From Acutalibacteraceae bacterium (GTDB lineage: Bacteria; Bacillota; Clostridia; Oscillospirales; Acutalibacteraceae): 49,418 bases of DNA. Under the pieces are notes generated by a model. The model did not search any database and was not told the origin of the DNA. It worked only from the letters and a program-made list of their open reading frames with translations. This document shows positions 7,382 to 29,506 of this stretch, one piece after another. Location: NCBI GenBank assembly GCA_045541655.1, contig JAZQJN010000012.1, positions 1 through 49,418 of the forward strand, in the 5' to 3' direction. Position 1 is the first letter of the stretch. Each line of letters opens with the position of its first letter. The position numbers were made by a program, and so were the translations under genes.

Positions 7382-7491
7382 GTGAAAGGGCGTGTGTGAG
7401 TCAGAATTGCACACGCTTTATCTTTATGTCTTGCGTTTTTTAAAAAGGGATGTTATAATATAAAGGTAAAAATTCCCCTCGGAGGTGCAAT

Positions 7492-8247
7492 ATGTTAAAA
7501 GAATCCAACAAAACGGAACTTTTTCATTTGGGTTTCAGCCCCGAAATAAAGGGGGATTTTGCCATTTTGCCGGGAGATCCGGGCAGGGTGGATAAAATAG
7601 CAAAGTATCTTGAAAACCCCACCCTGATTGCTCATAAAAGGGAATACCGTACCGTTCTGGGCGAGTGTGACGGCAAAAAGGTCTTTGTCTGCTCCACGGG
7701 GATAGGGGGTCCCTCCACCGCCATTGCGGTTGGGGAACTTATTCAGGCGGGGGTTACCACCTTTATTCGCATCGGTACCTGCGGAGGAATAAATCTAAAG
7801 GTTGACGGCGGAGATATTGTTATTGCCACCTCGGCTGTCCGCCAGGAAGGCACCGCCCTTCACTATGCACCCATTGAATTTCCTGCCACCGCCGATTTTT
7901 CGGTGGTATCGGCACTGAATGAGGCATCAAAAAAATTCGATAAAAAGGTTCACGTAGGAATTGTTCAGTCAAAGGATTCCTTTTACGGTCAACATTCCCC
8001 CGAAACATCCCCTGTACGGGATGAGTTAAAAGAAAAATGGTCGGCTTGGAAAGATCTTGGTGTACTTGCCTCCGAAATGGAGGGTGCAACCCTATTTACC
8101 GTGGCATCCGCAAGGGGCGTTAAAGCGGGGATGGTTTTATCTGCCGTGTGGAATCAGGAACGACACGCCGAAGGTCTTGACTGCAAAGAGATTATGGATA
8201 CCGAAACCGCCTGTAAAATTGCGGTGGAGGCAATAAAATATTTGTAA
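7492..8247 (+). CDS. udp: Uridine phosphorylase (PNP/UDP family)
   Basis: 251 aa with ILPGDPGR, STGIGGPS and EMEGA motifs. Confidence 0.85.
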   Translation: MLKESNKTELFHLGFSPEIKGDFAILPGDPGRVDKIAKYLENPTLIAHKREYRTVLGECDGKKVFVCSTGIGGPSTAIAVGELIQAGVTTFIRIGTCGGINLKVDGGDIVIATSAVRQEGTALHYAPIEFPATADFSVVSALNEASKKFDKKVHVGIVQSKDSFYGQHSPETSPVRDELKEKWSAWKDLGVLASEMEGATLFTVASARGVKAGMVLSAVWNQERHAEGLDCKEIMDTETACKIAVEAIKYL

Positions 8248-15306: not shown

Positions 15307-15464
15307 TTATAAAAATATCTAAAAATCTATTAGAAACCAGCTATTTCATTGCAAAATAGCTGGCTTTTTGTATATAAAGCGTTTTTTAATACACGCATTT
15401 GTGGATTTGCATTATTAAACGCTATTTTAAAATCCACGAATACAAATATTAAGGAGATGATTAT

Positions 15465-16067
15465 ATGAAAACTATCTTTGGATTTATTAAAAACGAGGAT
15501 GGAATAAGCGTAAATAAAGAAGCAGTTAATACAATTAATTTGATTGCTGAACTATATTTACAAGGATTTAGCTTAGGTTCAATTTCAAACACACTTGAGG
15601 ATAAAGGATATTTATCTCCGTCAGGCAAAACAAAATGGTCACGGTCAGTTATTGACTCTATACTATCTAATTCTTCTTATGTTCCGTGTATACTATCAGA
15701 AGAATTATTTTATGAGATACAGTTTGTGAAAGAAAAGCGCAGTAATAAAAATAGCGATAATTCTCGCAAGGCCACAAGGTATAATTCAAAAAATGTACTT
15801 AGCGGTCTTTTGTTTTGTGAAGAATGTGGCGCCTCTTACCGTAGAATAACTAAATCTACTGGTGAAGTTGTCTGGAGATGTGCAAACCGTGTGGAAAGCG
15901 GCAAACGTTTTTGCCATAGTGCGCCAACAATATCAGAAGAAATAATCAAATCGCAAATAATAAGGGCATGTTCCCTTATTATTTGGGATGAGTGCATTGT
16001 TCGGGAAAAAATTGAGCGAATTAATGTTACATCAAATCATAATTTAATCATATTTAATCACACTTAA
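15465..16067 (+). pseudogene. Large serine recombinase remnant (recombinase and zinc-ribbon domains only)
   Basis: LIAELYLQGFSLGSISNTLEDKGY and FCEECGASYRRITKSTGEVVWRC are typical of the middle and zinc-ribbon region. The ~150-aa N-terminal resolvase catalytic domain is absent. Confidence 0.7.
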
Positions 16068-16131
16068 ATCCCTTCCTATTGTAATCCAATTCGGTATATA
16101 GTATAATGTCCGTATAAGTGGATTAGAAAGG

Positions 16132-16770
16132 ATGCGCATTATGAAAGAGTTTGATTCTCGATTAGAAGCTGTATGGACTTATGTAATATCAAAAGAAAAA
16201 CTATTTAAGCGTTTGGTTGAACAAGGAATTTTTGATAAGGAGACAACAGATGAAATACTTGAACATATGTATTCTCAATTTAATTTAGATTATAATCCAA
16301 ACTTTGTTCCTTCTCCAGTGGGAGAAGTTATGTACGCAGCGAAGGTAGATGTGCCGCGAGCTTGTGTCTCTCTTACAGACATCGCAAGAGCAAAAACCGA
16401 TAAGAATCCCGGATATTTAATACAATCGTGGTTACGTAGCGATAATACTATTGAATTTTTACGTGCTTGGGAATTAAAAAACAATAAAAAATTTGATAAT
16501 GATGAATGCGAAAAACTTTTATCAGAAATAAAGCAAAATGGTTCCACACTAACTCCTAAGTTGTGGTCTGAGCGAACTAATGCAACAGGTCTTATCTCCA
16601 CTAAAGGTAAAGGCGGCGGAACAAAAGCAGATACGGATATCGCTTTAGCTTTTCGAGCGTGGTTAAATCCGGATATTATGTTAGAAATGATATCCCGTTT
16701 TAAATACTATGAAATTCAGTTTAATAAAAAAGATCCAACTATCATTTGTCAAGAGAACATCAATCCGTAA
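16132..16770 (+). CDS. KilA-N domain-containing protein
   Basis: SLTDIARAK...IQSWLRSDNTIEFLRAWELKNN...TLTPKLWSERTNATGLISTKGKGGGT...DIALAFRAWLNP matches the KilA-N pattern. Confidence 0.7.
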   Translation: MRIMKEFDSRLEAVWTYVISKEKLFKRLVEQGIFDKETTDEILEHMYSQFNLDYNPNFVPSPVGEVMYAAKVDVPRACVSLTDIARAKTDKNPGYLIQSWLRSDNTIEFLRAWELKNNKKFDNDECEKLLSEIKQNGSTLTPKLWSERTNATGLISTKGKGGGTKADTDIALAFRAWLNPDIMLEMISRFKYYEIQFNKKDPTIICQENINP

Positions 16771-16779
16771 ATATGATAT

Positions 16780-17661
16780 ATGTATTATAAAAAAACTCAA
16801 AAGATAGAAGCATCATTAACAGTTATATCTTTGTACGGTAAAATCAAATGTGGTATGTGTGGAGAAATTTGTTGCGCAACTTGTAACAATAATGGTGAAA
16901 TTTTTTGGTATTGCTCATGTTGCATAAAAGATGGATTGTTAGTCAATCAAAAGGAATTAGCAATAAAGTTGCAGGATGTTACAAATATAACAGATATATA
17001 TTTTGATTTTCTATTTCTAATAGTGGAGAAGGTAATCATTTACAAAGATAATATTGACATTGTTTTAAAGAAAATAGATTCTAGTCAAAAAGCTCTATTG
17101 TTACATCTACAAGATCATTGGTTAGTATATCACAGTATGAGAGGTGACCTAATAGCCAAAGAAACTATTTATAATCAATATTCTTCCTTTTTGGCTGCTA
17201 AACTTAGATATTTAAAAAGTCGTTCAAATCTTAATGATATGGACATTGAAGATTTATCTCAAACTATTTGGTTGCGAGTCTTTTCAAGACTTTCTAACTA
17301 TGATAGTAAATATAGACTCTTCACTTGGATTAATCAAATCCTAAGGTCTGAATTTTATCTAGCAATAAAAAGAAAACAAAAATATTTACTTTCAAACGAT
17401 TGTGTAAGATTAACACTTGATACTAACCAATACAACAAAAGAAATGATATTGATAATTGGATGGACAACGATTATGTAAGTGCGCTACTGTCAGTGCTAT
17501 CTGCGCGAGAACGTGAGATTGTTGTGCGATACTTGTTAAATAACGAAACACAAGTATCTATCTCAAAAGAACTTAAAATTTCGACTACTCGAACTAGTCA
17601 GATTTATTTACAAGCATTAAATAAAATTAGAGCTGAATTTGATGCTGAAACTAAAAAATGA
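16780..17661 (+). CDS. Sigma-70 (ECF-like) family sigma factor with an N-terminal extension derived from a serine-recombinase zinc ribbon
   Basis: Region 2 (EDLSQTIWLRVF...FTWINQILRSEF) and region 4 HTH (LSAREREIVVRYLL...ISKELKISTTRTSQIYLQALNKIR) are present. N-terminal CGMCG-x10-GEIFWYC parallels CEECG-x11-GEVVWRC of the upstream remnant. There is no clear RBS at 16780. Confidence 0.65.
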   Translation: MYYKKTQKIEASLTVISLYGKIKCGMCGEICCATCNNNGEIFWYCSCCIKDGLLVNQKELAIKLQDVTNITDIYFDFLFLIVEKVIIYKDNIDIVLKKIDSSQKALLLHLQDHWLVYHSMRGDLIAKETIYNQYSSFLAAKLRYLKSRSNLNDMDIEDLSQTIWLRVFSRLSNYDSKYRLFTWINQILRSEFYLAIKRKQKYLLSNDCVRLTLDTNQYNKRNDIDNWMDNDYVSALLSVLSAREREIVVRYLLNNETQVSISKELKISTTRTSQIYLQALNKIRAEFDAETKK

Positions 17662-17691
17662 TTAAATTAATGTTTTGAAAGGAACATTGGT

Positions 17692-18942
17692 ATGAAAAAA
17701 GATTATATAAATAAATTAATTAAAGCATACGATTCATTACAATACTTTTATTTTTCTAATGAAAAGGATGAATTGGATTTTGAAGATAAGCCCTATATAA
17801 ATATGTTAGAGCTTCTTTATTCGAAATTTTACGAATATGAATTTTTCAGTGAGGATCTTTTGGAATATGCAGTAATTAGTTATTTAAAACAACAGGATAA
17901 GCCACAAGAAACGAATGAAAACACCATTAAAGAATTCATAGAATATATTATAAATATTTTTGATATCAATAAGCAAAAACATTTCTTGATATTCCCACTT
18001 CAAGGTTCAGGTATTAATTGTGATGTTTCTTTTTCAAATATCCACATATTAAAAGAAAAGGGCGAAGAAGTGTTACTTGATCAAATATCCGAAATCACCG
18101 ATATGAGTTATTATGATGTAAGGGATTTTTTTAGACATACTCAAAATAGTAGATCAAAAGATTTTTTAAAATCTAATATAATGATTATTGAAATCGAAAA
18201 CCAAACATATAATGTTAAACATTCTGCATATCTAATGGCGCAATCAGCGATAAATATCTTAAAGCTTATTCATTCAGCATATGAAATGGAATCAAGTATA
18301 TTTAGAAAATCTGAATTACACGTTAAAAGGAATAGCCATGTTGCGATAATTTCAAAAGATTCCTGGCGATGTGGTCACGGTTTTAATTGGAATGCAAACT
18401 TACAGTGCAAATTAGATATTGATTTTATTGCTGAAAAAAAGCATCAAGAAACTTTTTCAAAAATGTTGAACTTGCTTTTTTCAAAAAGCAATGATCAACT
18501 TAATAGATTATTTATTAATGCATTTGGACTTTTTGAAAAAGCTACAATTCAGAGAACAGAGTTTTGTGAATATGAGATTTCGCTTTTATTATATCTAACA
18601 GCACTTGAGTCTCTATTTACAGAAGGCAAAAATGAGAAAAGACTAAGAATAGCAGCTATTGTTCCTAGAGTGTTGTATGATGATGGAGCTAAAATAACAG
18701 AACTTGCTGAAAAACTAGAAATTCTTTATATGCAACGTAATAATTTTTTACATGCGGGGGAGTTTTTTCATTATAAGCGGATTGATATAACGCTTGAACA
18801 ATTGGAGCAAACAGTTGCCAAAATAATCTTAAAAATTTTGACAATTGATGATATTATCTACGCAAGGGAAAATGAAAGCAACTTGAAGGCCTGGAACAAA
18901 TATACAGATAACATATTTAAAAATATTATTTTAGGTAAATAA
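17692..18942 (+). CDS. HEPN-domain protein (Rx4H), N-terminal ~300 aa unknown
   Basis: C-terminal LTALESLF...LEILYMQRNNFLHAGEF contains R349-N-N-F-L-H354 (DNA 18736-18753). RBS AAAGGAA is present. Confidence 0.6.
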   Translation: MKKDYINKLIKAYDSLQYFYFSNEKDELDFEDKPYINMLELLYSKFYEYEFFSEDLLEYAVISYLKQQDKPQETNENTIKEFIEYIINIFDINKQKHFLIFPLQGSGINCDVSFSNIHILKEKGEEVLLDQISEITDMSYYDVRDFFRHTQNSRSKDFLKSNIMIIEIENQTYNVKHSAYLMAQSAINILKLIHSAYEMESSIFRKSELHVKRNSHVAIISKDSWRCGHGFNWNANLQCKLDIDFIAEKKHQETFSKMLNLLFSKSNDQLNRLFINAFGLFEKATIQRTEFCEYEISLLLYLTALESLFTEGKNEKRLRIAAIVPRVLYDDGAKITELAEKLEILYMQRNNFLHAGEFFHYKRIDITLEQLEQTVAKIILKILTIDDIIYARENESNLKAWNKYTDNIFKNIILGK

Positions 18943-19000
18943 TATTTTTAAAACTTGTTATTCAACAACCCCAAATAGATGAGTGTATCATATATCAATG

Positions 19001-19018
19001 CTTATCAATATTGATAAG
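19001..19018. promoter_or_regulatory. Perfect 18-bp palindrome, candidate operator
   Basis: CTTATCAATATTGATAAG lies about 70 bp upstream of the -35 of the rSAM operon promoter. Confidence 0.45.
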
Positions 19019-19090
19019 ATATTTTCATAAGAAAAACTAACATCACATATTACTTTTATAATTTTCAAAACACATGTCAATACCTTTGCA

Positions 19091-19119
19091 TTGACATTAT
19101 TTTGGCTAGCATGTATAAT
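19091..19119 (+). promoter_or_regulatory. Consensus sigma-A promoter of the rSAM-SDR-2TM operon
   Basis: TTGACA, exactly 17 bp, TATAAT, about 37 bp upstream of the ATG at 19156 (RBS GTGAGGTG). Confidence 0.7.
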
Positions 19120-19155
19120 TATAATATAAGTTTATTTAATATGTGAGGTGAATAT

Positions 19156-20277
19156 ATGCCACATGCAAATAAACAAATGGCTTCGTTCTTTCTGACGTCC
19201 AAATGTAATTTGCGCTGTATATATTGTTACAACCAAGAGGAACGTATAAATCTAGTTGAACAGACATTGCCTATTGAAATTGCAAAAGCTGGTGTTGACT
19301 ATTTTTTCAGAACAAGTCAAAGTCGGCATATTAGATTTTATGGACCAGGAGAGCCGACTCAAGCTTTCATAATAATGAAAGAAATAGTTGAATACGCTAA
19401 AGAACAAGGTGGGAAAACTGTTACTACCGAATTACAGACTAATGGTTGCTTTGGAGAAAACGTCTGTTCTTGGATTAGTAACAATATTGATATAGTATGG
19501 GTGTCATTTGATGGCGAACCAGAAATTCAGAATAAAAATAGACCGTGTGCTAATGGGAAGCCGTCAGCTCCAATTATTGAAAAAAATGTTAAATGGTTGC
19601 TTAAAAACAAATCTGATCACAATATAATGGTGGGGGCACGTGTTACCATAACAAATGAAAATGTACAACGACAGCGTCAAATTATTGATTATTTTTCAAG
19701 TATTGGTATTAAACATATTTGGACCGATCCGATTTTCCCTACTGTAGGTAATATTCCTGTTTGCAATGATTATGAAAAACTAAGTCAATACAATTTTGAT
19801 ATGGATTTGTATGCAGATACATACATTGATGCCTTTTTTTATGCAAAGGAGAAAAACGTTTTTTATGGTAGTTTTCTCACATGCAATTTTGACGGTACAT
19901 GCAACAAGCATTGCCGTGCATGTACCCCAGTTCCACATTTTACAACTGATGGATATATTTCGGCTTGTGATCTAGTAACATTTGGTAAAACACCAAAACA
20001 TATGGATTGTTTTGTGTATGGCAAATGGGATGATACTAAAAAAACTTTTATAATAGATGAAAACAAGGTTAACGCTTTACGCCATAGAACAATAAATAAC
20101 ATGCCACACTGTGCAAAATGTGAGGTTAGAGAACATTGCGGGGGTTATTGTTTGGGGGAAGTGCAAAATGAGACTGGTACGTTATTGGGACAAAAGATAA
20201 ACACCTGTAAAGCAATACGAAAAATAGCACAGAAAATTGGATACCCTGAAAAACCGTATCCATATTTTCATCCATAA
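19156..20277 (+). CDS. Radical SAM enzyme with a C-terminal SPASM domain
   Basis: CNLRCIYC (CX3CX2C) lies at aa 17-24. The C-terminal CAKCEVREHCGGYC (CX2CX5CX3C) plus upstream CNKHCRAC cysteines form a SPASM-type auxiliary cluster signature. Confidence 0.85.
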   Translation: MPHANKQMASFFLTSKCNLRCIYCYNQEERINLVEQTLPIEIAKAGVDYFFRTSQSRHIRFYGPGEPTQAFIIMKEIVEYAKEQGGKTVTTELQTNGCFGENVCSWISNNIDIVWVSFDGEPEIQNKNRPCANGKPSAPIIEKNVKWLLKNKSDHNIMVGARVTITNENVQRQRQIIDYFSSIGIKHIWTDPIFPTVGNIPVCNDYEKLSQYNFDMDLYADTYIDAFFYAKEKNVFYGSFLTCNFDGTCNKHCRACTPVPHFTTDGYISACDLVTFGKTPKHMDCFVYGKWDDTKKTFIIDENKVNALRHRTINNMPHCAKCEVREHCGGYCLGEVQNETGTLLGQKINTCKAIRKIAQKIGYPEKPYPYFHP

Positions 20278-20298
20278 AAATACTTAAGGAGGCAATTT

Positions 20299-21045
20299 AT
20301 GAAAGTTGTTATTGTAGGGGCCGCAAAACCTGGTTACGCGGAATCAATTACGAGGAGATTTATTCGTCAAGGATATAGCGTTATTGGAACATATGACGAA
20401 GAGTATACTGATAATGCAATAAAAATGCAAAATGAGTTCACAGAAGATGTTTTGGTTCTTCGAAAGGTCGATTTGGCAAAGCGTGAAGAGCTATCTTCTT
20501 TTGTTAAATCAGTTCAAGGTAAAATTGATGGATTAATCTTCGCTCAATTTTTCTTTCATATGGAAGACCCAGATGATTTTGATCATATTATGTGGGACAA
20601 AAGTCTTGCAATCAATTTGACAGCTCCAAATTATCTTGTTCACGAATTAAAAGTGCAAATGAATCCAGGAAGTTCGATAGTTATTATAACAAGTACGGAA
20701 GCTTATAGGGGTTCATATGGTGCTTCTGCTTATGCTGCTACAAAGGCTGCGATACATAACCTTGTTCGCACCTTAGCTAATAATTTGGGAAAATATAATA
20801 TCCGCGTTAATGCATTACCAGCAGGATGGATCGGTGGCGAAATGGATACAGATGAAATATTCAATAAATCTAGATCGCTTACTCCATTAGGACGGTTAGG
20901 AACTGACGAGGAAATTGCAAATGTAGTTTATTTTCTATTTTCTAAAGAGTCGAGTTTCATAAATGGCACGACAATTGTTGCTGATGGTGGATACTTAGGC
21001 TCAGATCCTTTGTCAAAATATGAGTTTGAAGATAGTCGTAATTAA
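20299..21045 (+). CDS. Divergent short-chain dehydrogenase/reductase
   Basis: YAATKAA (YxxxK) with an upstream Ser (ITSTEA). The atypical Gly motif VIVGAAKPGYAESI resembles the FabI/pteridine-reductase style. RBS AAGGAGG is present. Confidence 0.8.
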   Translation: MKVVIVGAAKPGYAESITRRFIRQGYSVIGTYDEEYTDNAIKMQNEFTEDVLVLRKVDLAKREELSSFVKSVQGKIDGLIFAQFFFHMEDPDDFDHIMWDKSLAINLTAPNYLVHELKVQMNPGSSIVIITSTEAYRGSYGASAYAATKAAIHNLVRTLANNLGKYNIRVNALPAGWIGGEMDTDEIFNKSRSLTPLGRLGTDEEIANVVYFLFSKESSFINGTTIVADGGYLGSDPLSKYEFEDSRN

Positions 21046-21074
21046 GAAAAAATCGGAAAAGAGAGACGAAATAT

Positions 21075-22100
21075 ATGCGTAAGAAATGGTCGTTTTGGGA
21101 TATAATAATTCTAATGCTTGAAATTTTATCGCCTATTATATCTATTGTAATAACCTGTTTTATTCCAGCGGTCCAGGAACTTTCAGCCGATAGCAGATTA
21201 GCAATTATTGGGACAGGAATTGCTATACCTGTAGTACTAATACAAATTTCTATTACGCAAGGTCAAAACAAGACAGAGAGTGATAACGAAAAGAATAGAA
21301 ATCAGATTATAGAAATTTCTGAAAAAATAAATCATATTAGCCCTGTTTTAGAACAAGTATTTTTATCTGGCAATTCACGTGTACAACGTTTTGCATATCG
21401 CCGCTTTGAAGAAGTTTGTAAAACTATTCATACAGCTGTAAATAATAATAATTCTGGGAATTTACGGCCTAATGAATACTATGAAGAATTATTGCATCTG
21501 TCAGATCTAATTCTTAGGGATAAAGACAAAAACAAAAAGAAATTTCGTGGTGAAATATGGGCTATGACTGGATTTGCCGAGGATGAATGGATTGCCGATG
21601 AAGGATATGAGAATTTGTGGACAGATAAGCTAAAGGAAATGGTAGAAATAAATGCGATAAAAACACGTCGCTTATGTTTATTACCAGATTCATTATACAA
21701 CACGATAACTATGCCTGAATTTTCAGCACCACAAGAAAGTAATCATCCTTTTTGGGGATTTTTAAAATTATTGAATGATTACTATGGTAAAACGTTTAAT
21801 AATTCTAATGTTGAACATTATATTATTAAAGAAAACGATAATCCTAAATTAAAAGAGATTAGGGGTTTTTTTGCGATAAAATTAACTAATGGTGATTTAC
21901 ATATTTTATATGGGGAAACTGTGGATTCGAATGGAGCTTTAACAGCAAAAGTTTTGTTTGATCTTCAAGAAATTCAGGAAGTTCGTACGTTGTTTGAGAG
22001 ATATGCAAAATCTAATTATCGCATTGAAAATATTATACCGAAAATTTCTGATTCGAATGGATTTATTAAGTATCTAGAACAGCACAACATTAAAATATGA
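21075..22100 (+). CDS. 2-TM membrane protein with a ~270-aa cytoplasmic domain of unknown function
   Basis: Two N-terminal hydrophobic helices (aa ~8-30 and ~42-60) are followed by a charged linker and a globular region with no motif I recognise. Confidence 0.65.
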   Translation: MRKKWSFWDIIILMLEILSPIISIVITCFIPAVQELSADSRLAIIGTGIAIPVVLIQISITQGQNKTESDNEKNRNQIIEISEKINHISPVLEQVFLSGNSRVQRFAYRRFEEVCKTIHTAVNNNNSGNLRPNEYYEELLHLSDLILRDKDKNKKKFRGEIWAMTGFAEDEWIADEGYENLWTDKLKEMVEINAIKTRRLCLLPDSLYNTITMPEFSAPQESNHPFWGFLKLLNDYYGKTFNNSNVEHYIIKENDNPKLKEIRGFFAIKLTNGDLHILYGETVDSNGALTAKVLFDLQEIQEVRTLFERYAKSNYRIENIIPKISDSNGFIKYLEQHNIKI

Positions 22101-22345
22101 AGTTAGATTAAAAACACTATTGAACTCCAAGTATTTATAGGTTGGACATCAGTAGTGTTTTTTCTTTTTACCTCTGTTTTCATGCAGTTTTTCATCTTTT
22201 TAAATTGTTATTTTGAATTGGCTCAAAAAACAAAAAATCCGAAATCGATAAATAAAATTTTAAAATTAAATTATTCATCAAAAAATCTGACTACTATTAT
22301 AATAGCCAGATTTTTTGTTAAAAAAAAGACGCATAGCACACAGTC

Positions 22346-22413
22346 GCAAAAAGTACATTTTGCACAAAAAGATACAAACAGTGCAACTCGCACATATAGA
22401 AATATGTTATAAT
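22346..22413 (+). promoter_or_regulatory. Operator-like palindromes and an extended -10 promoter upstream of the HTH/R-M operon
   Basis: GCAAAAAGTACATTTTGC (22346-22363, 17 of 18 positions palindromic). TTGCAC-N15-GTGCAA (22360-22386). TGTTATAAT (22405-22413). Confidence 0.45.
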
Positions 22414-22430
22414 TTCATTGAGGTGATATT

Positions 22431-22898
22431 GTGCAAAATAATTCGTATCTTAATTTTAGAGAGAATTTAGAGTTGTTATTAAAGGGTAAATCGTATTCTG
22501 AATTAGCTTTGTATTTGGGTGTGCCTTCAAGCACACTTAAAAGTTGGATCAATGGTAGCAGGTGCCCAACGCTAAGAAATATTGATAAACTTGCTAATAG
22601 GATAGGATGTTATTCTTCTGATTTATTAAATTCAAAGGTTTGTATTATTAACAAAAAAGTACATTCAAATGATTCTCACATTTCTTTTGTTAAAAATTTG
22701 AATATTATGTTTTTGAAAAATCAATGCTTTTCGACACCTCAAAAACTTGCTTTATTAAACAATGTTATAACTGATTTTGCATTACAATCTTATTTAAGAA
22801 AACAAGATTATAAGTTGCCGACATTATCCAAATTAGATGTTATAGCAGATGCGCTTGGTATATCTACATATACTTTATTATTGGAGGAAACAAAATGA
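22431..22898 (+). CDS. Tandem-HTH XRE-family regulator (controller-protein-like)
   Basis: GTG start after GAGGTGA. HTH 1 is YSELALYLGVPSSTLKSWINGSRCPTLRNIDKLA. A second HTH-like segment is LPTLSKLDVIADALGISTYTLL. The stop overlaps the next start (ATGA). Confidence 0.7.
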   Translation: MQNNSYLNFRENLELLLKGKSYSELALYLGVPSSTLKSWINGSRCPTLRNIDKLANRIGCYSSDLLNSKVCIINKKVHSNDSHISFVKNLNIMFLKNQCFSTPQKLALLNNVITDFALQSYLRKQDYKLPTLSKLDVIADALGISTYTLLLEETK

Positions 22899-25303
22899 AA
22901 AAAGAGATTACACGTGAAAATAAAGAAAAAATACAGAAGTTGTTAGCGGCTATAGATGGAGTAGAAAATAGTGTTCCTTTCTTACTTAAAACAGCATTTA
23001 ATTTCAAGGGGAGAAAGTCGCCAATCATTGCACAGAAAGTTATAGAAGCCATAACAGAAGAAACTGATGCTATATTTGACCCATTTATGGGTTCAGCTTC
23101 GTTTGTAATTGCAGCAGCAAAAGCAAACAGAAAAATTGTAGCCACAGAAATAGATAATTACACATATTCCGCAGTATATGCTCTGTTAGCTAAAGTAAAT
23201 ACTGAGAAGTTAAATACAATATTCAAAAACATAGAAGCATCGGTTAAATCCTCTGTTATGGAATTGTACGAAACTTCCTGTTGCGGAGTTAAAAATTATA
23301 TAGAAAAATTATATTTTGACCCACAAGACAATGAGTTTTACTATCCTCGTCCAAACAGAGAGTTTTCTGACGGTAAAAACATAAAATTAATTTCGGCTTG
23401 TCCTATATGTGGAAAAAAAGACAAAGCGTTTGAAGGGTTTGATGAAGAAAAAATCAACTCTATTTCGGAAGAGGATGTTATAGATTTCCCTAAAGATACT
23501 TATATAGAAAATAGCCGAATTAATATAACTAGGTCTACGGGTGCAAATCGTTATGATAGAATATTTACAAAAAGAAATCAAAAGGCTTTGCTATTAATAC
23601 AAAGGGCAATATTAGAGCAAAGTGCTTCAATAGAACGGGATGTCATTGAACAGGCGCTAGTTTCCGCCCTGTCACTAGCAAGAATTTCAATGTACGGCTC
23701 AAGCACCGATATATTATATCATGTGGTTCCGTTCGGTGCTCAAGAAATGAATGTTTGGACACTGTTTGAGTCTAAATTAAATAGCTTTATTAATTTTAAG
23801 AAAGAGTATTCAGATATTTTATTGGCTGATTCTGATGATAACAAAAAGTATTATATACATAACGAATCGTATCAAGATTTTTGTTCCGAAAAACTGATGA
23901 AGGATTCGTTTGATTTGATATACACTGATTTTCCGTATACAGATCAAGTTCCTTATTTAGAAAGGAATCAATTATATAGGGTTTGGTTAAACAAATTTTA
24001 TAATAATGATATTTCTTTTGAATTGACTTCTAAAATGCTCAATGAAGAAATTGTTCAAACGGATTCTCCTCAGAGGGAAAACAAAAAAGGTGTTGATCAA
24101 TATTATTTAGATATAGATAAAATGTTTAAAACATTTTATAAGGTGTTAAAAACAAATTCGCTTGCTATTTTTACTGTAAAGTTGGGAAAAGCAAAATATT
24201 TCACAACACTTATGGAAATTATTAATCTTGCGAGAAAAAACGGTTTTGAATATGCCTTTAGAGTCGGCATAGACAAAAATGATCCTACTATACGTAAACA
24301 AGCGGCGTATAAAAACACGCTTTCTAATGAAATGATAATAGGATTTCAAAAATTAGATGAGGAGAATCGTTACTGGTACATAGGCAACAAGAACTACGAG
24401 TTCGAAACAGTTAAGTTAGTTTATAATGCGATAGAAAAAGATGAAATAACCATTAGCCATGCTGTTGATTTGGTGCGAAAAACTATAATAAATAAAGAAT
24501 CATATTTTGTATCTGACGAGGAAATTTTGACGATAAAGGATATTATTTTTAACAACTTTGTTATTGATACAAATACATCTATTGTTAGAAAGGATTACAA
24601 CAAACTATATTTGGATATTGAAGATAATTCTGATTTATTTACAAAATTTTATAATTTTATTCCCGTTATTATCAAGCGCCTTTTAGATGAGAACGGAAAG
24701 TTCGTTCTTGATGACCTTTATTTTGAAATAGCAAACACGTTATGTAACGGCGACCCTAAAACAGTAAATCAATTTCTTGAAGACAGAAGTCACGCCTCTG
24801 ATATAGACATATTGGTAAAAAATTATTGTGAAACTGATGGTCGAGTTTACACCAAGAAAAACTATACTGAAGCAGTTAAAGAAGGTGCCGTAGATATTTC
24901 AACATTGGAAGGATATGAATTTGAACATCTAATTAAAAAGTTACTAGAAAAAGACGGCTTCTTTAATGTAGTTAATACTGGCGGTGCAGGAGATTTGGGA
25001 GTTGATTTGTTGGCGCATAAATATGATGAGAATAAAATAGATAAATTATATTTATTCCAATGTAAACGCTGGGCTGCAAATGTTGGTAGTGAACCAATGC
25101 AACGTTTAGTAGCAGAAAAATTACGCCGTGGCGCCGATGTTGCTATATGCATTACTACATCAGATTTCACAAAGGATGGACAATTGATTTCTAATGAACA
25201 GGATGTCGGAATGTGGAATGGTGAGTATGTGACTCGAAAATTAAATGAGCATTTCCCGAATCAGTATTACAACGGTGCTTTGGAATGGAGCATAGGAGAT
25301 TAG
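22895..25303 (+). CDS. Fusion protein: permuted N6/N4-type DNA methyltransferase-like module with degenerate motifs, a middle domain, and a C-terminal Mrr-type PD-(D/E)xK nuclease
   Basis: FDPFMGSASF (motif I-like) lies at aa ~60 and LIYTDFPY (motif IV-like) at aa ~345. The C-terminal FEHLIKKLL...GAGDLGVDLLA...LYLFQCKRW matches the Mrr_cat pattern (D...QxK). Confidence 0.7.
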   Translation: MKKEITRENKEKIQKLLAAIDGVENSVPFLLKTAFNFKGRKSPIIAQKVIEAITEETDAIFDPFMGSASFVIAAAKANRKIVATEIDNYTYSAVYALLAKVNTEKLNTIFKNIEASVKSSVMELYETSCCGVKNYIEKLYFDPQDNEFYYPRPNREFSDGKNIKLISACPICGKKDKAFEGFDEEKINSISEEDVIDFPKDTYIENSRINITRSTGANRYDRIFTKRNQKALLLIQRAILEQSASIERDVIEQALVSALSLARISMYGSSTDILYHVVPFGAQEMNVWTLFESKLNSFINFKKEYSDILLADSDDNKKYYIHNESYQDFCSEKLMKDSFDLIYTDFPYTDQVPYLERNQLYRVWLNKFYNNDISFELTSKMLNEEIVQTDSPQRENKKGVDQYYLDIDKMFKTFYKVLKTNSLAIFTVKLGKAKYFTTLMEIINLARKNGFEYAFRVGIDKNDPTIRKQAAYKNTLSNEMIIGFQKLDEENRYWYIGNKNYEFETVKLVYNAIEKDEITISHAVDLVRKTIINKESYFVSDEEILTIKDIIFNNFVIDTNTSIVRKDYNKLYLDIEDNSDLFTKFYNFIPVIIKRLLDENGKFVLDDLYFEIANTLCNGDPKTVNQFLEDRSHASDIDILVKNYCETDGRVYTKKNYTEAVKEGAVDISTLEGYEFEHLIKKLLEKDGFFNVVNTGGAGDLGVDLLAHKYDENKIDKLYLFQCKRWAANVGSEPMQRLVAEKLRRGADVAICITTSDFTKDGQLISNEQDVGMWNGEYVTRKLNEHFPNQYYNGALEWSIGD

Positions 25304-25326
25304 ATATTTAAGGAGGTATAAATATT

Positions 25327-26325
25327 ATGGCTTGTAAAAGAATGAATGCCATTTTTTGTGAGCTTAAAACCATCCAAGAAGAATTTGGAAAGTTAACTGG
25401 GGAATACAATATATATTCAAGCAGCAAAATATATGAAATTATAATAGCAAATATGTTGGAACATCATATTTTAGCTGGTGCACATGGTGCGGATGCATAT
25501 GATGATTCTAAAAATCATTATGAATATAAGCATTATAAAGAATCAAGCTCTAACCACACTTGGACGTTTAATGATTATACCGATAAAACACTATCTGAAT
25601 TAAAATCTCGAACAGTTATATTTGCGCATATAAATGATATAAATTCAACAAATCCTTTGGAATATGTGGATTGGTATTACAAAGTTGATGGTAAGGTTAT
25701 AGCGAGATATATTTCTAATTGGTCTCAAAATTCTGGCAATAAACGAAAAATGATAAATATAAGTGTTTCACAATTAGAAAGTGATTGTAATGCTGAAAAA
25801 ATTTGTGTAAACTCAGATAATCTTGAAGGGCGATACTCTAATTATATTATTAAGATTTTTGAATGTATTGATTATCTTGAAAAATTCACAAAAACCACAA
25901 ATTTATTGACAAGCAATAAATTATGGGAATTGTTTTTAGCAAATGGATTAAACCATAAAATAAACTCCAAACAAGGCGGTATGGGAGGAAAACATGATGC
26001 TCAAGATTCCCAAAATCGAAAATATGAGTATAAAATATCTCAAAGCACATTATGGACCTTTGAGGATGTGAGTGATGACGTTATTGCTAATATGAGATTA
26101 TTAGATGGTATATATTTATCTCAAATTGATAAAAGGAAATTTGAAATTAAAAAAATCCTATTGTTAGATACCAATAAAACGATGAATTTTATTAAAAAGA
26201 AAAGAGATATAATGATTGCCGAGAAAAATAAGAGTAATATATTGATTCGCCGTTTGAATGTTTCTATCTCGTTGAATGAAGTTAAAAATGAAGGATTAAT
26301 AATAAAAAGTTTTCCTACAATATAA
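25327..26325 (+). CDS. Tandem-duplicated PvuII-like restriction endonuclease (single-chain pseudo-dimer)
   Basis: Two copies of K(I/L)(Y/W)E(I/L)..AN.L...G..DA.D-x5-YEYK...WTF.D occur at aa ~33-85 and ~198-245. The spacing is identical to my recollection of the PvuII catalytic segment GNDAVDNAGQEYELK. Confidence 0.65.
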   Translation: MACKRMNAIFCELKTIQEEFGKLTGEYNIYSSSKIYEIIIANMLEHHILAGAHGADAYDDSKNHYEYKHYKESSSNHTWTFNDYTDKTLSELKSRTVIFAHINDINSTNPLEYVDWYYKVDGKVIARYISNWSQNSGNKRKMINISVSQLESDCNAEKICVNSDNLEGRYSNYIIKIFECIDYLEKFTKTTNLLTSNKLWELFLANGLNHKINSKQGGMGGKHDAQDSQNRKYEYKISQSTLWTFEDVSDDVIANMRLLDGIYLSQIDKRKFEIKKILLLDTNKTMNFIKKKRDIMIAEKNKSNILIRRLNVSISLNEVKNEGLIIKSFPTI

Positions 26326-26328
26326 CAC

Positions 26329-26365
26329 AAAAGGAATCGTTCTGATTTTTGAACGATTCCTTTTT
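26329..26365. terminator. Bidirectional terminator between convergent R-M modules
   Basis: AAAGGAATCGTTC-TGATTTTT-GAACGATTCCTTT. Confidence 0.8.
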
Positions 26366-26368
26366 ATG

Positions 26369-27958
26369 CTACAATATCCATTTGGCAGTATCAGTGTCCC
26401 ACTTTAAATGTTTTTCAAAAATGTCAACTAATGATTTATACTTTAGGGAGAGGGTTTTTAGCCAACCGTTTTGTATTAAAATTTCCATAAGACCTTTGTC
26501 ATAAAGTTCTGGCGTTGACAACGAGCCGCTTTGTTTCACTAAAAAACGGGCTTGGCGGACAATATTCTTTTCTATTTCCTCCACTTGTTCGGCTCCCTCT
26601 TGTCCATAAATGGGAAATTGCGTTTTTTTGAAGAATAAAATACAATCGCCATTTAGTGATTTTTTTGGACTAATAATATTTTTTAGTGTATTAGACTTTG
26701 CAATATGCGCTTGTCCTAAATATTGTAATTGATAATTTGATAGACTACCGATTAATTTGTTCCAAACTTCTAAGCTTGAATCGTGGAAATACATACAAAA
26801 ATAGCCATCCATTTTTAGTTTATCAGAGCATATTTTAAAAACATCATCTAATAACTTAAAATATTCATCTTCACCTTTGTTGCGAGATGGTGCAGACGAA
26901 ACTACGATTTCATCATCTATATCAAAATTTAAATCCAAAAAAGGTTTATACAATTGCATGTATTCCGAGTATGCAACTTGACCCAAATAAGGGGGATCTG
27001 TAATGATAAGTTGTATAGATTCATTAGCAATATCCAAATTATCTATATGTTGGCTGCCTTTATGTAACAATTTATATTCTAGTTTCTCTTTATAATTTTC
27101 TTCTAAAAAGGCGATTGTACTAGAAAACTTTTTCACCTTTTTTTCTAACAAATCAATAACATTTTTTTCTACACAATCTGTTTTAGGAATCCAAAGCGGC
27201 CATTGAGAATTAGAATGTTTATCAGTGATCTTGCATAAATGTATAACCGACATCAATATGTATTTAAATAAATCATTATAGCAAGATAAATTGTTAATAA
27301 TACCAACTACCTCATCCAATACAGTAAAATTTCTTTTGGTGAAGATTTGGCTTATATGTTGATTTTCATATACAGCTAATTTACTGTTTGCTATGAGTAG
27401 TGTATCATTTATATTTTTAATAATATGATTGACGTTAATTGATTGAATATCGTTGATATCTGGGGTTTTGGTGCATTTAGAAGAACATGTGCATCTATAA
27501 TTAATGCTTTTAATTGCTATTTCTGCATCTCGTTGCGGTTTATCGAAAACAACAGATGTTATTACGCCTTTTGAACCGCAATTATCACAATCAGTATAAT
27601 AATACTTTTGTAATAATCTAATTTTGGAAAGAAATTCGTGTGAGACTTTTTTGTATATTTGTGCATCATAATCTTTTAACAAAGTTTTTACTATAAAAAG
27701 TGGTGCTTCATTTATTTCGCAACCAATTGCTTTCCTTTTTTTTCCCTTAGAAATAGACTGAAGCAGGGTAACACCCGAACCTAAAAATGGATCGAAAACA
27801 GTGTCGCCCTCATTACTAAATGCGTCAATTAATATATCACAAATGTTAAATGGCTTTTGTGACCAATAAATATGCGAGTCATACAAAGGGTTTTTGTTGG
27901 AGGCAGATGTACTATATATTTCTTTTTTAACTTCTTCTATTGATTTCATAATAGTCAC
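26369..27958 (-). CDS. DNA methyltransferase (N6/N4 type, motif I before motif IV, Cys-rich insert)
   Basis: VFDPFLGSGVT lies at aa ~55 and LIITDPPY at aa ~320. A Cys cluster (CDNCGS...YRCTCSSKC) lies between them. Confidence 0.8.
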   Translation of the reverse strand: MTIMKSIEEVKKEIYSTSASNKNPLYDSHIYWSQKPFNICDILIDAFSNEGDTVFDPFLGSGVTLLQSISKGKKRKAIGCEINEAPLFIVKTLLKDYDAQIYKKVSHEFLSKIRLLQKYYYTDCDNCGSKGVITSVVFDKPQRDAEIAIKSINYRCTCSSKCTKTPDINDIQSINVNHIIKNINDTLLIANSKLAVYENQHISQIFTKRNFTVLDEVVGIINNLSCYNDLFKYILMSVIHLCKITDKHSNSQWPLWIPKTDCVEKNVIDLLEKKVKKFSSTIAFLEENYKEKLEYKLLHKGSQHIDNLDIANESIQLIITDPPYLGQVAYSEYMQLYKPFLDLNFDIDDEIVVSSAPSRNKGEDEYFKLLDDVFKICSDKLKMDGYFCMYFHDSSLEVWNKLIGSLSNYQLQYLGQAHIAKSNTLKNIISPKKSLNGDCILFFKKTQFPIYGQEGAEQVEEIEKNIVRQARFLVKQSGSLSTPELYDKGLMEILIQNGWLKTLSLKYKSLVDIFEKHLKWDTDTAKWIL

Positions 27959-29190
27959 CGCCCATTACACAATATTAAATATTCAATTACTTTTTTCGGT
28001 GCTTTATTTCTGTTGTTTGAATGAGAATAATTTAATGTTGCGATCTCAACATTTGTTGCGCCAAATTCTTTAGAACAAGAATCTTTAATATCATCAATAG
28101 ACATCACATACCTGTCGGTTTTTTGTTTTGTGACATCTGCCGGATATGCAAAACTAATAGCTAGGTTTTTATTATATGCATTAGCAAAACAAACTAAATT
28201 ATTGAATGTAGTTAAACACGTACTTTTGGCACTTAATTTTGATTGATATCTATTTTCTGTATATAGACCCTTGGTATATTTTCCGGAGTTTTGTGTTGGA
28301 GCGGGATAATCGTATTTCGCAACTATATTTAATAAATGATAATATCTTGAATATTGCATATCCGTGTAAGGGGGGTCAGCGTAGATAAAGCTAACGTTAT
28401 TCTTTATATCGTCTTGCTTTATTAAATCTTCAAAATTCATATTATAAGTTTTGTTGCTTTTTGTAGTCTTAATAAATTCATCCAAAAAGAAACTCTGAAA
28501 CTTTTCTTTAAAAATATTGTAAATGGACTTATTGCGGGTTAAAAACAATTTAAATACATTGTCTTTTAAATTTAGAGGTTGTGCCATATGTCCGTCTTTA
28601 GAAAAAACACATTCTTTCATCGCAAAAAACAAAGATGTAAGCAACGGAAAGAATAAAGACGTTGATTTGAATTGTTCAATGGCATATCTTAAAGAATCAA
28701 TCTCTATTGATTGATTTAAACCAAAATAGGAACTAGAATAATATGTAGTAAAAAGTTCGAAATTATTATGGTTTTTGATAAAAGGTATTTTATGATTCCA
28801 AACGGTTGGAAATTCTTCATAAAACTCGATTAGAGCGGAATAATTATCTAAATCTGAAAGCAGTGTCTTTTCTTGTAATTGTTGTTCTATGATACTTTCT
28901 GAAAATTTGCCCATATTAGAAAAGAAATAATCATCTATTTGCATTAATATTTTTTGGGGATCTTCTTTATATGTTCCAAGCAAAGCGGTTGAAATAATAT
29001 ATGAATATAATTCACTATCATTAGCATAGATGGTATAATCTCTTTTATAACTGTATCCCACGCTGCATGTGCCGGCAAAAATATCCAATAACGTGGAGTT
29101 GGGTTCAATATAAGAAGCAGCATTTTGATGAATAAACTCAAGTAAGTTTTTTTTACTACCCTGATAATTCAAAACAGAAAAATGATCCAT
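27955..29190 (-). CDS. D12-class (Dam-like) N6-adenine DNA methyltransferase
   Basis: NYQGSKK, LLDIFAGTCSVG and FIYADPPY motifs. RBS GGAGGGG precedes the ATG at 29190. There is a 4-bp overlap with the downstream MTase gene. Confidence 0.8.
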   Translation of the reverse strand: MDHFSVLNYQGSKKNLLEFIHQNAASYIEPNSTLLDIFAGTCSVGYSYKRDYTIYANDSELYSYIISTALLGTYKEDPQKILMQIDDYFFSNMGKFSESIIEQQLQEKTLLSDLDNYSALIEFYEEFPTVWNHKIPFIKNHNNFELFTTYYSSSYFGLNQSIEIDSLRYAIEQFKSTSLFFPLLTSLFFAMKECVFSKDGHMAQPLNLKDNVFKLFLTRNKSIYNIFKEKFQSFFLDEFIKTTKSNKTYNMNFEDLIKQDDIKNNVSFIYADPPYTDMQYSRYYHLLNIVAKYDYPAPTQNSGKYTKGLYTENRYQSKLSAKSTCLTTFNNLVCFANAYNKNLAISFAYPADVTKQKTDRYVMSIDDIKDSCSKEFGATNVEIATLNYSHSNNRNKAPKKVIEYLILCNGR

Positions 29191-29506
29191 ATATTCCCCT
29201 CCACACAATATTGTAATGATTATAACATATTAATTTAAAATAATCAACTACATATAAAAAATTATAGCTAAAAAAATTGCATCGGAAAAATTCGGTGTGT
29301 CTAAATTCGCCTAAAATGATTGATTGAAACACATAAAACATTTACCGTATAAGCAAACAGATATTCCTATTATTGATGTCTTGCAATATAGTTAAAAAAT
29401 TTGTGTACTAGCATTTAAACTATATGGTTGTTTTATATGTAGGGGTACGAACACATAGGTCAAAAATTCAAAAGGGTTAGAATTTGTGCTCCCCTACCAA
29501 AGCATT

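Follow-up and report, generated by a model that had tools for sequence, protein, structure and literature searches.

A single-chain tandem of two diverged PvuII-like units, a probable monomeric restriction endonuclease from an Acutalibacteraceae bacterium

The gene at positions 25327..26325 (+ strand) of a 49,418-nucleotide stretch of DNA from an Acutalibacteraceae bacterium (GenBank assembly GCA_045541655.1, contig JAZQJN010000012.1, positions 1 to 49,418 of the forward strand; hereafter the window) encodes a 332-residue protein, R, in which two diverged copies of one PvuII-like nuclease unit follow each other in a single chain. We consider it likely that R works as a monomeric restriction endonuclease of the Type IIT/IIA kind on an asymmetric target, and that it descends from a PvuII-like subunit that was duplicated in tandem and fused. 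PvuII itself, a Type IIP enzyme, is a homodimer of 157-residue subunits that recognises the palindrome CAG^CTG, cuts it to blunt ends and is accompanied by one N4-methylcytosine (m4C) methylase.

Results

R is an internal duplication

The open reading frame (ORF) of R starts with ATG, 10 nt after a ribosome-binding site read from the sequence (AAGGAGG, 25310..25316, + strand). Its product divides into an N-terminal PvuII-like unit (residues 1-164; 25327..25818, + strand), delimited by hhalign alignment with PvuII and with the C half, and a C-terminal unit (residues 165-332; 25819..26322, + strand), delimited by alignment with PvuII and by the secondary structure of an AlphaFold2 model, in which the linker covers roughly residues 161-170 and a helix begins at residue 171. 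Compared directly, residues 1-164 and 165-332 align with E = 1e-10 and 33% identity over 78 residues (BLASTP). Profiles of the two halves, obtained by splitting an alignment of 86 family members (alignment A1, 37-82% identity to R) at residue 164/165, align with each other at a probability of 99.5% (hhalign, E = 3.5e-22, 146 aligned columns). Because 146 columns align between the half-profiles, the whole unit of ~165 residues was duplicated and not the motif alone, and by these sequence comparisons the internal repeat is far above chance. Two diverged copies within the ORF are what a sequence-only reading of this DNA had claimed; the self-alignment that it proposed as a check is significant, and every peptide it quoted is found in R: SSKIYEIIIANML (residues 32-44), GAHGADAYDDSKNHYEYKHY (51-70) and HTWTFNDYTD (77-86) in the first half, SNKLWELFLANGL (196-208), GGKHDAQDSQNRKYEYKIS (220-238) and TLWTFEDVSD (241-250) in the second.

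A search of 5.8 billion proteins returned 269 homologs of R, nearly all of them ~320-350 residues long; shorter database matches are fragments from short contigs. A frameshift or an assembly fusion of two genes was ruled out, the full-length homologs having the same architecture in cultured genomes and in metagenome-assembled genomes (MAGs).

Both halves retain a PD-(D/E)XK triad

Each half carries the motif D-A-x-D-x5-Y-E-x-K with equal spacing, as the sequence-only reading had noticed: D56-A-x-D59-x5-Y65-E66-x-K68 in the N half (25492..25530, + strand), aligned to PvuII D58/E68/K70, and D224-A-x-D227-x5-Y233-E234-x-K236 in the C half (25996..26034, + strand), assigned from conservation in the 86 sequences. 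The PvuII motif, D58-A-V-D61-N-A-G-Q-E-Y67-E68-L-K70, has the same spacing as both. The 157-residue PvuII sequence used for comparison matches PDB entries 1PVI and 1EYU over residues 1-157, and the catalytic segment that the earlier reading had quoted is correct against it. Alignment A1 shows no substitution at E66, K68, D224, E234 or K236, and at least 90% of the homologs retain D56. R thus holds two complete triads, both predicted to be catalytic, within halves that are only 22-33% identical.

This conservation bears on the alternative that only one half cuts, R being a natural nicking enzyme or its second half serving DNA binding or allostery only. The C-terminal domain of Sau3AI has such a DNA-binding or allosteric role. 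Tandem PD-(D/E)XK proteins can also lose a site: in the C half of a distant tandem protein, P0176, E-Y-L takes the place of E-x-K, so that one of the P0176 sites may be dead. Cleavage is moreover sequential and strand-ordered in two-site monomers such as Mva1269I (PMC3017599). A dispensable site is nevertheless hard to reconcile with two triads kept across 86 sequences that reach down to 37% identity and come from both bacteria and archaea, and we regard a single cutting half as very unlikely.

Both halves are related to PvuII

The Pfam family PF09225 (Endonuc-PvuII) is matched by 37 of the 86 homologs at E<=0.001 (best E = 2.7e-9); the match falls on either half or on both, depending on the homolog. 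In hhalign comparisons with PvuII, the N-half family profile scored 92% (E = 6e-7) and placed D56/E66/K68 on D58/E68/K70, and the C-half profile scored 80% (E = 1.3e-5, 99 columns) with the catalytic D/E/K in register. The R halves are ~15% identical to PvuII (PF09225; PDB 1PVI, 1PVU) and resemble it both in the catalytic signature and in predicted fold; the helix that precedes the active site of PvuII, 'SK..E..L...L.H', is likewise retained in R.

An AlphaFold2 model of R built from alignment A1 had a predicted local distance difference test score (pLDDT) of 94.6 and a predicted TM score (pTM) of 0.91. Its top Foldseek match in the PDB is the engineered single-chain PvuII 3KSK (332 columns, E = 1.1e-13, TM score 0.62 for the query, TMq, and 0.65 for the target, TMt). 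PvuII monomers match one R half each (TMq ~0.3, TMt 0.56-0.71), and among the 50 Foldseek matches listed no solved structure besides PvuII matches the model well. Because a TMq of 0.62 needs one rigid superposition that places both halves, the two units are predicted to pack like the subunits of PvuII, in an arrangement that matches the PvuII dimer. The dimer-like packing that the sequence-only reading had anticipated is therefore recovered in the model, and its description of a covalent pseudo-dimer with both sites retained agrees with triads kept across the family and with a PvuII-like predicted structure.

Two methyltransferases accompany R

R is convergent with two methyltransferase genes. 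Methyltransferase 1 (M1; 26369..27958, - strand; 529 residues) belongs to the N6_N4 class (Pfam PF01555, E = 5.8e-22) and has motif I DPFLGSG and motif IV TDPPYLG with a long insert between them. Methyltransferase 2 (M2; 27955..29208, - strand; 417 residues) belongs to the D12 (Dam-like) class (Pfam PF02086, E = 8.3e-17) and carries its motif IV, DPPY, at residue 278. The two genes overlap by 4 nt and so form an operon. A hairpin with a 14-bp stem, seen in the sequence between the convergent R and M genes (26329..26364), is likely a bidirectional terminator. Upstream of M2 lies a promoter-like TTGATT-17-TATAAT with extended TG (29219..29247, - strand), a consensus match only; such sites are no more numerous in the region than expected from shuffled sequence.

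Homologs of M1 (39-55% identity) adjoin R homologs in about 20 Bacillota-type and Fusobacterium loci, M2 homologs (42-51% identity) are co-located with M1 in the same loci, and an N6_N4-methylase match lies beside R in about 50 of 77 loci (all by tblastn). Domain scans showed how the pairing is realised in different lineages. R is accompanied by methylases of 541 and 430 residues in a Fusobacterium locus, by one fused 956-residue D12+N6_N4 protein in a Clostridia MAG, by an 868-residue multi-domain methylase and a TaqI-like methylase gene in Hugenholtzia roseola, by two small N6_N4 methylases (307 and 232 residues) that flank it in a Kuenenbacteria locus of the candidate phyla radiation (CPR), and by methylases of 264 and 246 residues in a Nitrosopumilus chromosome and of 261 and 536 residues in a Prochlorococcus genome. 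Counting the window, two methyltransferases, two fused domains or, in Hugenholtzia, a large methylase with a second gene were present in 7/7 domain-scanned lineages; the pattern is established for these seven, not for every locus.

A DPPY motif IV points to adenine-N6 methylation. Motif IV is DPPY in every methylase where it was read, namely M1 and its homologs of at least 35% identity, M2 of the window, and both methylases of Kuenenbacteria, Nitrosopumilus and Prochlorococcus. Since M1 and M2 both carry DPPY, both are probably adenine-N6 enzymes, and N6-methyladenine (m6A) would probably be the modification on both strands.

The halves have diverged around a common core

The two halves share twelve positions at which the same residue is conserved to at least 90% in the family: the catalytic D-A...E-Y-K together with K34/K198, E37/E201, H46/H210, W79/W243, F81/F245, D83/D247 and R140/R309. 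Other positions are conserved yet different. N32-S33 in the N half corresponds to S196-N197 in the C half, and these residues align beside PvuII Asp34, which the title of PDB entry 3PVI identifies as contacting DNA. N76, H77, T80, H101, W116 and N138 are conserved in the N half only, as are E185, L194, K292 and R308 in the C half only. The N half is also longer, by a conserved stretch of 4 residues (K71 and E72 among them) directly after the catalytic lysine. Such half-specific conservation is the pattern expected if both halves are active yet read different half-sites.

Proposed mode of action

In the mechanism that we propose, the two halves would fold back on each other like the subunits of the PvuII homodimer and form one DNA-binding cleft, in which one R molecule would bind one asymmetric site. 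Each half would read its own half-site and, with its own PD-(D/E)XK site (D56/E66/K68 or D224/E234/K236), cut one strand; the intramolecular pseudo-dimer in the model suggests that R would do so as a monomer, cleaving both strands. By analogy with the blunt central cut of PvuII, cleavage would probably fall inside the site, near the pseudo-dyad. M1 and M2 would each methylate an adenine on one strand and thereby protect the host. The reasoning on the target is that diverged halves, each reading a different half-site, would make it non-palindromic, and that a non-palindromic target needs a protective methylase for each strand; two methylases per system are a signature of an asymmetric recognition sequence.

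The site might instead be symmetric or nearly so, the fusion only stabilising the dimer and the methylases being redundant or drawn from different systems. Engineered single-chain PvuII still cuts a palindrome, and the most strongly conserved positions of the family (W-x-F-x-D, K34/K198, E37/E201 and R140/R309) are common to both halves. Against this stand the two methylases or fused domains in all seven domain-scanned lineages, which are unrelated to one another and show what is described as the hallmark of an asymmetric site (PMC4081073 section 35), and the divergence of the halves in overall identity, in their family-invariant residues and in the longer loop of the N half. A symmetric site is, in our judgement, very unlikely.

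Several results weigh against a monomeric PvuII-derived enzyme with an asymmetric target. Pfam gave no match for full-length R or for either half, even at E<=1, NCBIfam and PADLOC, including the PADLOC restriction-enzyme models, gave none for R, and the family hidden Markov model (HMM) searched against PDB sequences did not reach PvuII; phmmer and the family HMM returned only chance matches there (adenylate kinase, ornithine aminotransferase). The link to PvuII stands on profile-sequence alignment, transitive Pfam matches and predicted structure, and the profile hit foreseen by the sequence-only reading came not from a direct scan of R or its halves but through the family, in the homolog matches to PF09225 and the two hhalign comparisons. 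The pseudo-dimer geometry comes from a predicted model, whose root-mean-square deviation (RMSD) from 3KSK is ~6 Å. Higher-order assembly, for example two R monomers bridging two sites, may occur, and the Mrr fusion conserved in Clostridia (see below) may make the system more complex than R, M1 and M2. At some archaeal and Patescibacteria loci, few of them domain-scanned, tblastn with the window methylases found nothing beside R. Finally, no candidate asymmetric site emerged from k-mer avoidance in 768 kb of pooled host DNA (69 host loci and the window; Markov-corrected observed/expected ratios of 5- and 6-mers). The scan showed generic palindrome avoidance only (GAATTC, GATATC, GGWCC and the like), with ratios of 0.97 for the BmgBI site CACGTC, 0.88 for the BsrBI site CCGCTC and 1.12 for the BssSI site CACGAG. 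The asymmetric target suggested by the sequence-only reading accordingly finds its support indirectly, in the methylase pairs and the half-specific conserved residues, and none in the k-mer scan.

Distribution and independent duplications

The R family spans 67 distinct species-representative loci in bacteria (Clostridia, Bacteroidota, Patescibacteria/CPR, Pelagibacteraceae, Prochlorococcus, Ignavibacteriota and Zixibacteria) and archaea (Nitrosopumilus, Woesearchaeota, Nanoarchaeota and Methanosarcinales), a breadth typical of horizontally mobile restriction-modification (R-M) genes. The phage collection gave a single match, at 7386..8171 (- strand) of MT836948.1, a 'Bacteriophage sp.' contig of 8.2 kb that comes from human faeces and carries no annotation (36% identity, 83% coverage), and no R homolog was found in the plasmid collection. 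The family is so far without a name: the best 120 of the 269 homologs are called 'hypothetical protein' in their sources, save one that wrongly bears the label 'plasmid maintenance system killer protein' and another given as bare gene coordinates. Because its members carry this label and are missed by the PADLOC restriction-enzyme models, R-M censuses of marine and candidate-phyla genomes undercount systems of this kind.

An HMM search of 1.84 billion cluster representatives also returned, at weak E-values, single-domain PvuII-like proteins of ~157-170 residues and other tandem PvuII-like proteins of ~300-355 residues (P0176, P0206, P0207, P0211, P0214 and P0250) that are unrelated to R at the family level; P0214 carries a C-terminal SAP domain. 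When halves were compared with halves by BLAST, each R half matched the other R half best. The halves of P0206 likewise matched each other best (39% identity, E = 4e-38) and then the single-domain P0202, the C half of P0176 was nearest the single-domain P0221, and P0207, P0250 and P0211 formed their own cluster, N half with N half and C half with C half. Sequence matches of this pattern speak for duplication and fusion having occurred independently at least three times within the PvuII-like superfamily.

In Pseudobacteroides cellulosolvens ATCC 35603 (locus L065, 6001..6822), the R match ends at about query residue 283, and this copy may be truncated or inactivated; helix-turn-helix (HTH), Mrr-fusion, M1 and M2 genes are all present at that locus.

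Discussion

Restriction enzymes that combine two catalytic sites in one natural chain and act on asymmetric targets are already known. Type IIT enzymes comprise single chains with two different catalytic sites, asymmetric targets and two methylases (PMC4081073 section 35), and monomeric two-site enzymes have been termed 'Class II' by Chan et al. (PMC3017599); members are Mva1269I, BsmI, BsrI and BtsCI, and also AciI, BssSI, BsrBI and BmgBI (PMC4081073 section 35; PMC3017599). R likewise has one chain, two different predicted catalytic sites, two methylases and an expected asymmetric target. It differs in origin: the examples that have been studied, Mva1269I, BsmI and others, combine unlike domains (one EcoRI-like and one FokI-like in Mva1269I), whereas the two sites of R derive from duplication of one PvuII-like unit within a compact 332 residues. 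The two-site enzymes of this class that have been studied are about twice the size of R. Structures of BsmI and BbvCI were absent from the 50 Foldseek matches listed for the R model. A characterised enzyme may already belong to the R family; one candidate is BmgBI, described as consisting of two domains of similar size, both engaged in recognition and in cleavage (PMC4081073).

The Type IIT heterodimers BbvCI and Bpu10I resemble R in having two related but different units, each with one active site and one half-site, and two methylases. They differ in being separate polypeptides of another PD-(D/E)XK sub-fold, with a holoenzyme that crystallised as a tetramer. A single-chain BbvCI exists as an engineered construct only, and its full activity needed a 21-residue tether (PMC6326814).

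Comparison with PvuII sets a homodimer of identical subunits with one methylase against fused, diverged units with two DPPY methylases. The best structural match to the model, 3KSK, is like R a head-to-tail tandem in one chain of ~320-330 residues, but it is man-made, from two identical copies (residues 1-156 and 161-316) and a short artificial linker; R has diverged halves and a native linker of roughly 10 residues, maintained by selection in many phyla. 3KSK represents the engineered single-chain PvuII of Simoncsits et al. (2001; cited in PMC4081073), which reportedly keeps the palindromic specificity. A search of the full-text literature that left REBASE and subscription journals outside turned up no account of a tandem PvuII-like enzyme from nature, and no such structure is among the 50 PDB matches listed by Foldseek. 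The sequence-only reading had called a natural single-chain version notable. Its general concept, a single chain with two sites, was already established (PMC4081073, PMC3017599); new are its realisation from PvuII-like units, an unnamed family whose two sites arose by duplication of such a unit, and at least three independent duplications of this kind.

The evolutionary route has a counterpart in the LAGLIDADG homing endonucleases, of which I-SceI and I-AniI are monomeric and I-CreI homodimeric. There, a homodimer acting on a palindrome gave rise by duplication and fusion to a pseudo-symmetric monomer with two active sites and an asymmetric target (PMC3017599). R would have followed the same route, although the LAGLIDADG enzymes are unrelated to it in fold, in the details of catalytic chemistry and in biology (intron homing rather than restriction-modification). 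If our reading is right, restriction enzymes have repeatedly taken this path from homodimer to pseudo-symmetric monomer, and R offers a natural experiment in turning a symmetric DNA reader into an asymmetric one, with halves that can be compared residue by residue with well-studied PvuII and with independent duplications in sister lineages acting as replicates. R would also probably bring a new asymmetric specificity. Mutating one catalytic site in enzymes of the Type IIT class yields strand-specific nickases (PMC4081073 section 35), and a compact, probably monomeric enzyme of 332 residues with two separable active sites would be an ideal start for engineering them. To restriction-enzyme specialists the finding will be conceptually unsurprising; it is well supported, useful for nickase engineering and evolutionarily neat.

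Accessory genes and genomic context

Upstream of R lie a gene for a Cro/C1-type HTH regulator (22431..22898, + strand; Pfam HTH_3, E = 1.4e-12; weak PADLOC Control_protein match), possibly a controller protein, and, overlapping it by 4 nt, a gene for an 802-residue accessory protein (22895..25303, + strand) in which an M1-like methyltransferase module precedes a C-terminal Mrr-type nuclease domain (Pfam N6_N4_Mtase and Mrr_cat, E = 5e-21). R starts 24 nt downstream of the latter and is probably co-transcribed with both. M1 and the 802-residue protein are paralogs (27% identity, E = 2e-21); motif IV of the latter reads DFPY, not DPPY. Homologs of this fusion (47-53% identity) adjoin R in 11 Clostridia loci, where DFPY and the Mrr D...QxK are conserved and where both methylases are present too if the locus extends far enough; HTH homologs (36-40% identity) occur in 10 of these 11. 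The gene order in the Clostridia loci differs, R standing before the HTH gene rather than after the Mrr fusion.

The fusion could provide a second nuclease arm working through the same recognition module. We advance only tentatively the fuller picture, in which no natural equivalent of single-chain PvuII was recognised before R, which would define a large, so far uncharacterised cross-domain family of restriction enzymes with a new asymmetric specificity, would represent one of at least three independent fusions and would have been joined in Clostridia by a methylase-paralog-Mrr protein recruited as a possible second restriction arm at the same site. Least probable of all is that R is merely the nuclease part of a larger defence or mobile-element module with the HTH protein and the methyltransferase-Mrr fusion as main actors, as its placement directly behind this conserved pair and among recombinase, KilA-N and sigma-factor genes of a low-GC island might suggest, since outside Clostridia R occurs with methylases only, which makes R and two methylases the core, as in a standard Type II system, and the accessory pair lineage-specific.

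An inverted repeat, TGCAC-N15-GTGCA, lies upstream of the HTH gene at 22361-22385 and is overlapped by a small palindrome, GTGCAACTCGCAC, at 22381-22393. Judged from their sequence, the repeats within 22361..22393 are candidate binding sites of the HTH regulator and could act as operators or C-box-like elements.

The low-GC island that holds the R-M genes extends over about 15400..29300 of the window, with a GC content of 0.27-0.36 against ~0.40-0.46 in the flanks. Its other members are a truncated serine-recombinase-like ORF (15465..16067), genes for a KilA-N protein (16132..16770) and a sigma-70-like factor (16780..17661), an ORF that matches no Pfam or PADLOC family (17692..18942), genes for a radical S-adenosylmethionine protein with weak viperin-like PADLOC matches (19156..20277) and a short-chain dehydrogenase/reductase (SDR) family reductase (20299..21045), and a second ORF that matches no Pfam or PADLOC family (21075..22100). 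The sister contigs L007-L010 have the same block from HTH to M2 in another setting, with a GmrSD Type IV enzyme upstream of it.

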